Positions 17,023 to 55,368 of a DNA stretch of 64,000 nucleotides are shown here, piece by piece (within the stretch, counting starts at the first letter, position 1; every line of letters starts with the position of its first letter). A program made the translations under genes and the position numbers. The notes under the pieces are model-generated. The model was not told the DNA's origin, ran no database searches, and worked only from the letters and a program-made list of their open reading frames with translations. The DNA comes from Escherichia coli (GTDB lineage: Bacteria > Pseudomonadota > Gammaproteobacteria > Enterobacterales > Enterobacteriaceae): assembly GCF_041886205.1 (NCBI RefSeq), contig NZ_CP169029.1, one strand, 5' to 3'.

Positions 17023-17388
17023 GTCGACAGGGAGTCAGACAACGAAGTGAACATCAGGATGATGACACTTCTGCAGGACACACCAGGATGGTGTTTCAGG
17101 GAAAGGCTTCTGGATGAAGCGAAGAGGATGACGCAGGACGCGTTAAAGGACACCTCCAGGATGGAGAATGAGAACCGGTCAGGATGATTCGGTGGGTCAG
17201 GAAGGCCAGGGACACTTCAGGATGAAGTATCACATCGGGGTGGTGTGAGCAGGAAGCAATAGTTCAGGATGAACGATTGGCCGCAAGGCCAGAGGAAAAG
17301 TTGTCAAGGATGAGCAGGGAGCAACAAAAGTAGCTGGAATGCTGCGAAACGAACCGGGAGCACTGTGAATACAGTGCTCCCTTTTTTT
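17023..17388 (+). ncRNA. csrB: CsrB small RNA (CsrA-sequestering)
   Basis: About 365 nt with many repeated CAGGAUG / AGGA motifs (CsrA binding sites), ending in a GC hairpin (17355-17380) plus T7 run. Confidence 0.93.
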
Positions 17389-17433
17389 ATTCCTGCTATC
17401 CTTCGCGGCAGTTTTTCTTATTGAGGTTGCTTT

Positions 17434-51246: not shown

Positions 51247-51981
51247 ATGTCCAAACTCGATCTAAACGCCCTGAACGAACTGCCGAAGGTAGATCGCATT
51301 CTGGCGCTGGCAGAAACTAACGCCGAACTGGAAAAACTGGACGCTGAAGGCCGCGTCGCCTGGGCGCTGGAAAATCTGCCCGGTGAATATGTACTTTCCT
51401 CCAGCTTTGGCATTCAGGCGGCGGTGAGCCTGCATCTGGTGAATCAGATTCGCCCGGATATTCCGGTGATCCTCACCGATACGGGTTACTTGTTCCCGGA
51501 AACCTACCGCTTTATTGACGAGTTAACGGACAAACTCAAGCTCAACCTGAAAGTGTACCGCGCTACCGAAAGCGCCGCCTGGCAGGAAGCACGTTACGGA
51601 AAACTATGGGAGCAGGGCGTTGAAGGCATTGAAAAGTACAATGACATCAACAAAGTCGAACCGATGAACCGGGCGCTGAAAGAACTGAATGCGCAAACGT
51701 GGTTTGCTGGCCTGCGGCGTGAACAATCCGGCAGCCGTGCCAATTTACCGGTGTTGGCAATTCAGCGTGGCGTATTTAAAGTGCTGCCGATTATCGACTG
51801 GGATAACCGAACTATTTATCAGTACCTGCAAAAACATGGCCTGAAATATCACCCATTATGGGACGAAGGATATTTATCGGTGGGCGATACCCATACAACC
51901 CGTAAATGGGAACCTGGCATGGCGGAAGAAGAAACGCGTTTCTTTGGCTTAAAAAGGGAATGTGGGTTACACGAAGGGTAA
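51247..51981 (+). CDS. cysH: Phosphoadenosine phosphosulfate (PAPS) reductase
   Basis: 244 aa from [23 protein letters not shown]; ORF track start 51094 is an upstream extension. Confidence 0.95.
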
Positions 51982-52245
51982 ATATTGCCGGATAAATTAA
52001 ACGCCTCTGTCAGAAATGATGGGGGCGTTTTTATTTTGCGAGCAGCATTCCTGATTTTAAACGTGAAAATAGCAGAGGGAATCAGCAGGCATAGAATGGC
52101 GTCGGGTGCTTGAGGCTGTCTGGCGTTGAGCATTCGCGAGGTTCCAGATGGACAAAAGCCCCAGGCGATATTTCTATCAACCTGAGGCCAGCGTTCGAAC
52201 CTAAGCAATTCGGATGTTAGTCTCTTCTTTGCAGGGAGGCAAGAC

Positions 52246-52398
52246 ATGCTGACAAAATATGCCCTTGTGGCAATCATCGTACTGTGTTGTACAGTACTGG
52301 GATTCACGCTGATGGTAGGCGACTCGTTGTGTGAGTTGAGTATCAGAGAACGTGGTATGGAGTTTAAGGCAGTTCTCGCTTACGAATCGAAGAAGTAG
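52246..52398 (+). CDS. Hok/Gef-family type I toxin (hokX-like locus)
   Basis: 50-aa [53 protein letters not shown]: N-terminal TM helix plus conserved C-terminal LCE..IR....E.A..AYES pattern of Hok proteins. Confidence 0.7.
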
Positions 52399-52635
52399 CC
52401 ACCACGCGGGGGGTAAAATCCCGCGTACTGAATTGTGATGGTTTGGTCTCCTGCACCCTTTTTAATTTATATTGTTTATGTGAATATTATGCCTGTGTTT
52501 ATTATTTATATGTTTTATAGATGAAAACCATTGAATTATTCACAATGTAAATATTTTAATGAACGATATATATCACAGATAATTTTTAATATATGCGTAA
52601 ATATCCTTTAAGTTTTACGAAAGGATAAAAACATT

Positions 52636-54063
52636 GTGACTTTCTTTGATTTCTGGGGAAAAAACCGACGCGGCGAGAAAGAGGGCGGCGACGACTATCA
52701 TCTACTTTGCTGGCATTCGCTGGATGTAGCCGCGATGGGCTATTTAATGGTTAAAAGCAATTGCTTCGGGCTGGCTGACTATTTTCGTCAACTAGGTTTC
52801 GATGATACGGAGCAGGCAGCACAATTTTTCGCCTGGCTATTGTGCTGGCACGATATTGGAAAATTTGCCCGCTCTTTTCAGCAACTTTATCTGCATCCAC
52901 AACTCAAGGTTCCGGAAGGCGCAAGAAAAAATAACGAAAAGATCTCTCATTCAACGCTGGGTTACTGGTTGTGGAATCATTATTTAATTGAATGTGACGA
53001 GTTGCTTCCTTCCTCTTCACTCTCTCCCCGCAAACTTAAACGGGTAATAGCGATGTGGATGCCCATGAGCACGGGGCATCATGGTCGCCCACCTGACCGT
53101 ATTGATGAACTGGATAATTTTCTGCCTGAAGACAAAGTTGCCGCGCGAGATTTTCTCCTTGAAATCAAGTCACTGTTCCCGCTCATAGAGATCCCCACAT
53201 TCTGGGATGATGACGAGGACGTTGAACTTATAAAACAACTTTCCTGGTATATCTCTGCAACCGTCGTACTTGCAGACTGGACAGGATCGTCAACGAGATT
53301 TTTTCCACGCGTCGCACACCCAATGGATATTAAAGATTACTGGCAGAAGGCTTTAGTGCAGGCTCAAAACGCCTTAACCGTCTTTCCTCCAAAAGCAGAA
53401 ACCGCACCTTTCACCGGAATTAATACACTGTTTCCTTTTATTGAGAATCCGACACCGTTACAGCAAAAGGTGCTGGAACTGGATATCAGCCGGCCCGGGC
53501 CACAGTTATTTATTCTGGAGGATGTAACCGGCGCAGGTAAAACAGAAGCGGCGCTTATCCTGGCGCACAGGTTGATAGCTGCGGGGAAAGCTCAGGGGCT
53601 GTTTTTTGGTCTGCCAACAATGGCAACGGCCAATGCCATGTACGATCGGCTGGTCAAAACCTGGCTTGCTTTCTATTCGCCAGAATCCCGCCCCAGCCTG
53701 GTGCTGGCACACAGTGCCCGCACATTAATGGACCGCTTTAATGACTCACTCTGGTCCGGTGATTTAGTCGGGTCAGAAGAACCGGATGAACAAACGTTCA
53801 GTCAGGGATGTGCAGCCTGGTTTGCCGACAGTAACAAGAAGGCTTTACTGGCTGAAATTGGCGTCGGCACGCTGGATCAGGCGATGATGGCAGTGATGCC
53901 GTTTAAACATAATAATCTGCGGCTTCTGGGGTTGAGTAACAAAATCCTGCTGGCTGATGAGATCCACGCCTGTGACGCTTACATGTCGTGCATTCTTGAA
54001 GGGCTGATCGAGCGGCAGGCGCGTGGCGGAAACAGCGTTATTTTGCTTTCTGCTACGTTATCT
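52636..54063 (+). pseudogene. cas3: 5' fragment of type I-E cas3 (HD nuclease domain and helicase motifs I-III), truncated at a CRISPR repeat
   Basis: HD motif (CWHDIGKF), Walker A (TGAGKTEA), DExH (LLADEIHACD), SAT (LLSATLS); reading frame then runs directly into the repeat at 54064; about 476 codons, roughly half of a full cas3. Confidence 0.8.
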
Positions 54064-54214
54064 GTGTTCCCCGCGCCAGCGGGGATAAACCGCCATTCTT
54101 GTTGTCGTTCATCAAGCGCAGGGGGTGTTCCCCGCGCCAGCGGGGATAAACCGGGTAAATAACACAGCGTTTGAAACAGGCAAAAGTGTTCCCCGCGCCA
54201 GCGGGGATAAACCG
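54064..54214 (+). CRISPR. Type I-E CRISPR array remnant: 3 repeats, 2 spacers, no leader
   Basis: GTGTTCCCCGCGCCAGCGGGGATAAACCG at 54064, 54125, 54186 with 32-nt spacers; directly abuts the cas3 fragment. Confidence 0.92.
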
Positions 54215-54330: not shown

Positions 54331-55368
54331 TCAAGACGCCTTCGCCAGCTCCTTCACCAGCGGTAGCATTATCCGCATAACATCACGGCAGCGACGTTCT
54401 ATTCTTCCAGGAAGTGCCTTATCAATATGTTGTTGATTATCCAGTCTTACGTCATGCCAGCTATTTCCCGCCGGGAAGGCAGGTGTTTTTGCGCGTTGCT
54501 GATAACCATCCTTATTCCCAAGATTCCAGTTAGTCGCTTCCACCGAAAGTACAGCAATGCCCGCTTTGTCGAATATTTCTGCGTCATTACAACACCCAGT
54601 GCCTTTCGGATAATTTTTATTCAAACCCGGATTGGTCGTTGCGGCTATTCCGTGACTGCGCGCAATTGCCAGCGCCCTGTCGCGCGTTAATTTCCTTACT
54701 GCTTCAGGGGTTTTTACACCGCTGTTGAAATACAATTTATCGCCAACAATTAAGTTATCGAGATCAATCACCAGCAGCGTATTTTTCTTTTCGGTGTCAC
54801 TCATCCGCTTGAGTAAATTCTCAGCGCCTAATTTCCCTTCCTCTTCGCCGCTGGTCGCCACAAATCGAATACCATACTCGGTAGGCGTATTTTTCAGGCG
54901 TTCTGCCAGTTCCAGCATGACACCTAAACCTGCGGCGTTATCATCCATTCCTTGTAACGTCAGCCCGCCGAGATTGGCATCGGCGTCAGCATCGCTCAGC
55001 GGGGCGTAAGTATCCAGATGCGCCATAATGATGATCTGCTGCGGCGCTTTGCCTTCATGAGCGGCAATCACCGTACTTCCTGTCACGTTATGCCAGTTCT
55101 TGCGATTATCGCGGGCGGTATAAATATACCGACTATTAAATGTCCGAATATCACTGCGATAACCCATTTGCTGAAACTGTTGGCGAATATAATCGGCAGA
55201 TAACATTTCTGCAGGAGTTCCGGTCATGCGTCCCGGAAAGAAAGTAGCAATATGTCGTGCCTGAGTATTAGCAAAATCGCCAGGTTTAGGTAACGAGGCG
55301 TGTACGGGGAGAATAAAGCATACGCCGAGCGCCAGGGCAGCGGTACGGTGGCGCAATGCGGAAAACAT
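54331..55368 (-). CDS. iap: Alkaline phosphatase isozyme conversion aminopeptidase
   Basis: 345 aa with signal peptide, M28 peptidase-like. Confidence 0.9.
   Translation of the reverse strand: MFSALRHRTAALALGVCFILPVHASLPKPGDFANTQARHIATFFPGRMTGTPAEMLSADYIRQQFQQMGYRSDIRTFNSRYIYTARDNRKNWHNVTGSTVIAAHEGKAPQQIIIMAHLDTYAPLSDADADANLGGLTLQGMDDNAAGLGVMLELAERLKNTPTEYGIRFVATSGEEEGKLGAENLLKRMSDTEKKNTLLVIDLDNLIVGDKLYFNSGVKTPEAVRKLTRDRALAIARSHGIAATTNPGLNKNYPKGTGCCNDAEIFDKAGIAVLSVEATNWNLGNKDGYQQRAKTPAFPAGNSWHDVRLDNQQHIDKALPGRIERRCRDVMRIMLPLVKELAKAS

Follow-up and report, generated by a model that had tools for sequence, protein, structure and literature searches.

Map of a chromosomal hokX/sokX toxin-antitoxin module between cysH and a truncated cas3 in Escherichia coli

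The locus and its toxin gene

The window analysed here is a stretch of 64,000 nucleotides of Escherichia coli DNA (contig NZ_CP169029.1 of RefSeq assembly GCF_041886205.1), in which cysH ends at position 51981 and is followed by a spacer of 654 bp and then by a truncated cas3, the start of which falls at about 52593-52636. Within the spacer lies a compact module, extending over about 52092-52463, in which a hok leader, the gene for the antisense RNA SokX, a toxin open reading frame and a set of 3' elements are all present. The cysH gene has its own intrinsic terminator at 51999-52030 (a 14-bp stem and a T run), and the sub-threshold Rfam matches to ctRNA_p42d and Spot 42 at 51939-52039 were set aside as look-alikes of this terminator. 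On the other side, the cas3 remnant, which PGAP annotates as a pseudogene at 52593-54063 and whose reading frame runs on to 54162, directly joins three type I-E repeats of sequence GTGTTCCCCGCGCCAGCGGGGATAAACCG at 54064, 54125 and 54186 (a spacing of 61 nt), beyond which lies iap (54331-55368, minus strand); the segment from cse1 to cas2 is deleted, with cas3 fused to the array. Far from this region, the window also holds the gene for the small RNA CsrB (17032-17391; Rfam RF00018, 383 bits).

The original prediction had placed the toxin frame at the site of sokX in K-12, and the annotation agrees: the K-12 noncoding RNA sokX (b4701) is placed in the same cysH-cas3 spacer. A megablast search with the spacer matched 5425 of 5426 complete E. 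coli genomes, only 11 of the 5425 being at least 99% identical to it. Strain wlxctx60 is 100% identical over the spacer, and its RefSeq annotation lists the frame as WP_000956458.1, "Hok/Gef family protein", between cysH and a frameshifted, truncated cas3 pseudogene. A second query, designed to reach 80% coverage only if both the end of cysH and the hok frame are present, found 4145 of the 5426 complete genomes (about 76%), with or without cas genes. Genomes of the K-12 type match only up to the hok ATG (52248), the hok frame being absent and sokX kept. The locus is called hokX in the literature (PMC7232551), hokX/sokX has been included among toxin-antitoxin genes (PMC11598369), and a survey of 237 urinary isolates found hok and sokX beside cysH in 90% of them, the remainder carrying sokX alone, as in K-12 (PMC12736100). 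The hokX/sokX locus found here is thus one already known, named in the literature and annotated by RefSeq, intact but ordinary.

The toxin frame, hok(X), occupies 52246-52398 on the plus strand and runs without interruption from ATG to TAG; its translation is exactly the 50-residue peptide for which an intact Hok-family type I toxin had been claimed. That claim is supported both by the profile and by the alignment. Pfam PF01848 (HOK_GEF) is matched over its full length, residues 5-46 against model positions 1-42 of 42, with E=6.3e-10. Among the NCBIfam models the HokA equivalog ranks first with 53 bits and the Hok subfamily follows with 39.5 bits, both scores falling short of the curated cut-offs (89 and 73, respectively). 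In alignment the peptide is 78% identical to HokE, 48% to HokA, 37% to HokC, 36% to HokD, 33% to HokB and 34% to Hok of plasmid R1. The K-12 comparators are translations from annotated coordinates, and the plasmid comparator is a sequence matched at 100% on more than 2600 plasmids, equivalent to "Hok_R1" in Table S2 of a recent preprint (bioRxiv 10.1101/2025.08.07.668861).

The transmembrane segment is assigned to residues 6-24, which also form the best 19-residue hydropathy window (2.76), and the conserved positions are C14, T16, L28, C29, E30, E39, Y46 and E47. Of the residues compared with HokA-E and Hok R1, C14, T16, L28, E30, E39 and A45 are invariant, C29 is common to all comparators except HokB, and the Y46-E47 pair is present in the hok(X) peptide, so that no conserved Hok residue has been lost. 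The same positions agree with those kept in over 80% of a set of 1264 Hok peptides (bioRxiv 10.1101/2025.08.07.668861). Apart from the small size of the frame, nothing speaks for its being a chance opening in an intergenic spacer, and that explanation can be dismissed as refuted by the profile matches (E=6e-10 for Pfam and E=1e-23 for Rfam), by the occurrence of the same protein in thousands of genomes, and by variation that is synonymous only.

A peptide identical to that of hok(X) is listed in Table S2 of the same preprint as construct LRP171/46_982, in cluster 46 with HokE. According to its text, 45 constructs were tested by arabinose-induced expression and only 19_179, 60_1482 and 69_1540 were non-toxic. 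Since 46_982 is in the tested set and is absent from these three, the toxicity test of the identical peptide appears to have been done already, with the result "toxic", a reading obtained by elimination from this text and Table S2. The link with the present locus is made through Table S2; in the main text cysH, cas3, CRISPR and hokX are not mentioned (bioRxiv 10.1101/2025.08.07.668861).

The Shine-Dalgarno sequence of hok, as read from the DNA, is GGAGG at 52235-52239 (plus strand), 6 nt 5' of the ATG and overlapping the complement of the Sok -35 box; GGAGG is also the Shine-Dalgarno predicted for the identical peptide in Table S2 of the preprint. In-frame N-terminal extensions, seen as gene calls of 62-83 amino acids, were ruled out, no upstream start codon being found after the TGA at 52183-52185. 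The codon for Tyr46 and the G that follows form UACG (52381-52384), the recognition motif of TadA, and the preprint describes the UAC-GAA at this position as conserved and able, potentially, to permit Tyr-to-Cys recoding (bioRxiv 10.1101/2025.08.07.668861). The UACG at 52381-52384 does not lie in a hairpin loop of the consensus fold described below.

Transcript folding and the SokX antisense RNA

Rfam RF01794 matches the hok leader along model positions 1-157 of 157, beginning at 52104, with 108.4 bits, a score well above the gathering threshold (59; E=1e-23 for the window as a whole). The model is named 'sok antitoxin'; at this locus, as at K-12 sokX, sokE, sokC and sokB, its match falls on the hok-sense strand, and because what it matches is the leader of the hok mRNA, not the annotated Sok strand, strand calls taken from it are inverted. 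For comparison, six further E. coli alleles were aligned with the window, and after them ten more modules, among these three additional E. coli hokX alleles and modules from Klebsiella, Enterobacter, C. rodentium and the hokE site of E. coli. The unit that aligns runs from TAGAAT (52092-52097) and GGGUGC (52104) to GCACCC and a T run (52453-52463).

Each of the 11 aligned modules has a box reading TAGAAT, TAGGAT, TAAGAT or TAAAAT 6-7 nt 5' of GGGTGC, and the TAGAAT at 52092-52097 (plus strand), as read from the sequence, is the putative -10 box of the hok promoter. No good -35 was seen for this promoter, which is consistent with its being weak. Just 5' of the -10 box, the segment 52068-52090 is distinctive in this lineage and unlike the common allele. 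The full-length hok(X) mRNA (plus strand) would extend over 52104-52463, its 5' end being set by the first position of the Rfam model together with GGGUGC, and its 3' end by the boundary of conservation and the T run at 52459-52463; in strains without cas genes the homology ends at about 52466 and iap follows. A simple promoter and terminator scan found neither a hok nor a Sok promoter, and no terminator at the hok 3' end.

The fold-back elements for which the original prediction had proposed a search were found, both as a tac/fbi closure and as ucb/dcb-like helices. In the minimum-free-energy fold of a 367-nt RNA, the tac-like 5' element GGGUGCUUGAGGCU (52104-52117, plus strand) pairs with the fbi-like 3' element GGUCUCCUGCACCC (52445-52458, plus strand), so that the full-length fold closes 5' GGGUGC on 3' GCACCC. 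The pairs of positions 1-6 with 358-363 are kept in nine of nine homologous modules; the six core pairs are invariant and no covariation is seen among the nine, the support for this closure being conservation and energy. In the closed form the ucb-like box CUUCUUUG (52224-52231, plus strand) pairs with the dcb-like box CGAAGAAG (52388-52395, plus strand) at the end of the toxin frame. This helix, number 8 of the consensus, has 8 pairs, is 100% paired, and varies at only one of them; compensatory changes are present in the helices that join the target-loop region to the 3' UTR. In the RNAalifold consensus of nine modules from four genera, 98% of cells are paired and 16 compensatory pairs are observed, against 8.8 in shuffles (0 of 500 reaching 16) and 0-5 in slid controls, counts to be read with the alignment being small and the consensus structure having been derived from the same nine sequences.

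The GC-rich hairpin of the 3' UTR, consensus helix 16, lies at 52404-52426 (plus strand), has a 7-bp stem here and one of 8 bp in most alleles, includes one compensatory pair, and folds in the full-length as well as in the 3'-shortened RNA. Such a stem-loop had been proposed at 52406-52427; it exists, and its position has to be corrected, since ACGCGGG occupies 52404-52410 and CCCGCGT 52420-52426. It is internal to the 3' UTR and does not form the end of the transcript, the conserved module continuing to the fbi element at 52445-52458. The role of the 3' hairpin and the scheme of 3' processing have been summarised for plasmid R1 (PMC9841398), and on this analogy the hairpin seen here probably protects the processed mRNA as its terminal hairpin. 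Removal in silico of the last 40 nt or so, a tail that contains fbi, frees the Sok-target hairpin, a modelled outcome that fits the R1 processing scheme summarised in that review (PMC9841398).

This target hairpin of the hok leader (52184-52224, plus strand) appears in the fold of the 3'-shortened RNA, agrees with the Rfam consensus hairpin, and presents a 9-nt loop CCUAAGCAA (52200-52208) complementary to the 5' end of Sok. Of the whole leader, this loop varies most: its sequence is CCTAAGC here, whereas the K-12 type has CCCAAAC and the O157 type CGT-AGC, with each hokE copy different again, and the corresponding Sok 5' ends are GCUUAGG here, GUUUGGG in K-12 and GCUACG in O157. The target loop and the Sok 5' end may set the specificity of Sok/hok pairing.

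The SokX RNA is encoded on the minus strand at 52148-52206, with its 5' end at 52206; a single-stranded 5' tail comes first, then a terminator hairpin (52158-52189) and a U run. Its gene agrees at 55 of 57 aligned bases with the 59-nt sokX of K-12 (b4701), which in MG1655 is encoded on the opposite strand from cysH, and the fold of the RNA has an energy of -22.7 kcal/mol (z=-2.9). An antisense RNA had been expected on the minus strand at about 52150-52245; the strand was right, while the extent was not, the RNA itself covering 52148-52206 and its promoter reaching 52242. That promoter (52214-52242, minus strand) consists of a -35 box TTGCCT (52242-52237), a 17-nt spacer and a -10 box TAACAT (52219-52214). 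With 8 of 12 consensus positions it scores under the threshold of 9 used in the promoter scan, and it is assigned from the annotated 5' end of K-12 sokX, which falls 7 nt past the -10 box, and from conservation across genera, the hexamers and their spacing being kept in ten of ten modules from E. coli, Citrobacter, Klebsiella and Enterobacter. In K-12, SokX has been detected under all conditions (bioRxiv 10.1101/2024.06.20.599902).

Leader reading frames and allelic variation

The paradigm type I toxin-antitoxin and post-segregational killing system is the hok/mok/sok (parB) system of plasmid R1. Its mok has 70 codons and overlaps most of hok; no mok of this type is present here, and the GAGG at 52182-52185 is followed by no start codon at a usable distance. 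What we infer to be the equivalent is a mok-like leader frame of 12 codons (52214-52252, plus strand), which reads through the hok Shine-Dalgarno and ends at the hok start, its TGA overlapping the latter in the sequence ATGCTGA. This frame is present in seven of seven E. coli alleles and in the modules from Klebsiella, Enterobacter and C. rodentium, a conservation that is confounded, since the Sok -10 box on the opposite strand coincides with its ATG. No clear Shine-Dalgarno was seen 5' of it. In R1, translation of mok is required only up to the hok start (PMC9841398), and a short frame ending at ATGCTGA could therefore suffice. The complementarity to Sok extends from +45 to +103 of the hok RNA and stops 8 nt before the AUG of the 12-codon frame, near enough that the Sok duplex could occlude initiation there. 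Among the K-12 loci, mokC and mokA are in-frame extensions and mokB overlaps out of frame, so the form of mok varies within the family. A 34-codon frame starting at the ATG at 52148 was also considered as mok and is unlikely to be one, being open in some alleles only: it is stopped here by a TAA at 52202-52204, within the target loop, is frameshifted in O157 and U15A, and has lost its ATG in A24.

Seven alleles from distant lineages were compared (this strain, TUM2330, AW1.7, O157:H7, A24, U15A and O104:H4), and all encode WP_000956458.1, with seven synonymous and no non-synonymous sites in the toxin frame, the spacer 5' of the transcript differing by about 7% between allele pairs. The peptide is under purifying selection. 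The present allele is set apart from the other hokX alleles by the distinctive segment 52068-52090 and, in the 3' hairpin, by one extra G and a C-to-T change. In O104:H4 an IS421 is inserted inside the 3' hairpin, after the position equivalent to 52418 of the window. Two hok modules carry elements of the IS186/IS421 family at corresponding sites, inside the GC hairpin in O104:H4 and just after it at K-12 hokE, which suggests a recurrent insertion hot spot at the hok 3' hairpin, where insertion cuts off fbi. Tandem arrangements also occur: some strains carry two or three complete hok/sok modules in a row at the E. coli hokE site (between ybdK and entD), and Enterobacter has two.

It might be argued that the locus is a silent relic, with a toxin frame still intact and a Hok that cannot be expressed natively for lack of a proper promoter and a working mok, much like the five inactivated hok loci of K-12. 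The missing -35, the lineage-specific sequence upstream, the TAA that breaks the 34-codon frame in this allele and the lack of an evident Shine-Dalgarno for the 12-codon frame could all be read in this way, and the K-12 deletion and the IS421 in the O104:H4 hairpin indicate that the locus is dispensable and often disabled. We nevertheless consider this improbable. A relic would hardly be expected to keep an identical protein across distant lineages with synonymous changes only, nor to retain its regulatory helices, Sok promoter and short leader frame across four genera; the module in the window has suffered neither insertion-sequence disruption nor frameshift; and in the R1 system itself translation of the leader need not go past the hok start (PMC9841398). 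We favour, with high confidence, the interpretation that the locus is the hokX/sokX type I toxin-antitoxin module of the chromosome, paralogous to hokE/sokE, and that in this strain it is complete and probably works.

Proposed mechanism, relatives and genomic context

By analogy with hok/sok of plasmid R1, the weak promoter would give rise to a hok mRNA of about 360 nt, in which the 5' end (tac) would pair with the 3' end (fbi), and the leader and Sok-target region with sequences of the 3' UTR and of the end of the toxin frame, through the ucb/dcb-like helices. With these pairings closed, the full-length RNA would therefore be neither translated nor bound by Sok. Slow 3' trimming to the GC hairpin at 52404-52426 would then strip off fbi and refold the leader, exposing the Sok-target hairpin and the start of the 12-codon frame. 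Translation of the latter through the hok Shine-Dalgarno, with a stop overlapping the hok AUG, might permit translation of hok by coupling. As long as the constitutive 59-nt SokX was present, it would pair with the target loop by way of its 5' tail and extend this contact to a duplex over +45 to +103, blocking initiation and marking the RNA for RNase III; once Sok fell, the 50-residue Hok peptide would be made, insert into the inner membrane, and kill or arrest the cell. The transcript ends, the processing, the coupling through the short frame and any physiological role of hokX are parts of this scheme that we infer.

Closest to the module are the other hokX/sokX loci of E. coli, which lie at the same site, with a Sok gene identical to that of K-12 at 55 of 57 bases and a protein identical to those of O157:H7, O104:H4, urinary and other strains; K-12 hokX/sokX differs from the window in that its hok frame is absent. 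The closest paralogue is hokE/sokE, in the ybdK-entD spacer of K-12, with 78% protein identity and the same module layout, including the Sok promoter hexamers and the closure of 5' GGGUGC on 3' GCACC. It differs in its chromosomal site and in Sok 5' ends that are not alike. A 4-nt insertion before the hokE start also puts the upstream ATG in frame, giving an extended form of 62 amino acids, whereas the corresponding ATG in hokX opens the 12-codon frame, which ends 4 nt into hok; K-12 hokE in addition carries IS186B 18 nt past its stop. With R1 hok/mok/sok the module shares membership of the Hok/Gef family with its conserved Cys, Thr, Leu-Cys-Glu, Glu and Tyr-Glu residues, an antisense Sok directed against the leader, the tac/fbi closure, ucb/dcb-type helices, a 3' hairpin and a leader frame 5' of hok. 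The protein identity to R1, however, is only 34%, and the leader up to the hok AUG measures 142 nt in hokX against about 173 in R1. hokX is also chromosomal and not plasmid-borne, hence with no obvious replicon to stabilise.

The position of hok next to a decayed CRISPR-Cas locus, to which the original prediction had drawn attention, looks incidental, since the same module elsewhere adjoins an intact cas3, iap without cas genes, or IS421. A functional tie of the toxin to CRISPR-Cas, either as an addiction module stabilising the locus or as a back-up abortive infection system, could draw on the fact that the module adjoins cas3 in many strains and on reports that hok/sok affects phage infection, as cited in the preprint (bioRxiv 10.1101/2025.08.07.668861). 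Such a tie is nonetheless most improbable: the module keeps the same distance from cysH whichever of the three neighbours follows it, K-12 has cas3 without hok while here hok is kept and cas largely deleted, and the relatives in other genera occupy unrelated contexts. Nor is hok enriched near defence systems, at 12% against 9.4% expected, according to the same preprint (bioRxiv 10.1101/2025.08.07.668861).

A broader idea in two parts is put forward as tentative and rather speculative. Modules of the hokX type, in E. coli, Klebsiella, Enterobacter and Citrobacter, might work with a minimal mok of 12 codons and with termination-reinitiation at AUGCUGA, in place of the long overlapping mok known from R1, the hypervariable loop at 52200-52208 serving to insulate hokX, the tandem hokE copies and the different alleles from each other's Sok. 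Beyond correct annotation, the significance of the locus in this strain is little; the main gain is a precise map of the module, with its Sok gene and Sok promoter, its short leader frame, and its tac/fbi and ucb/dcb-like helices.
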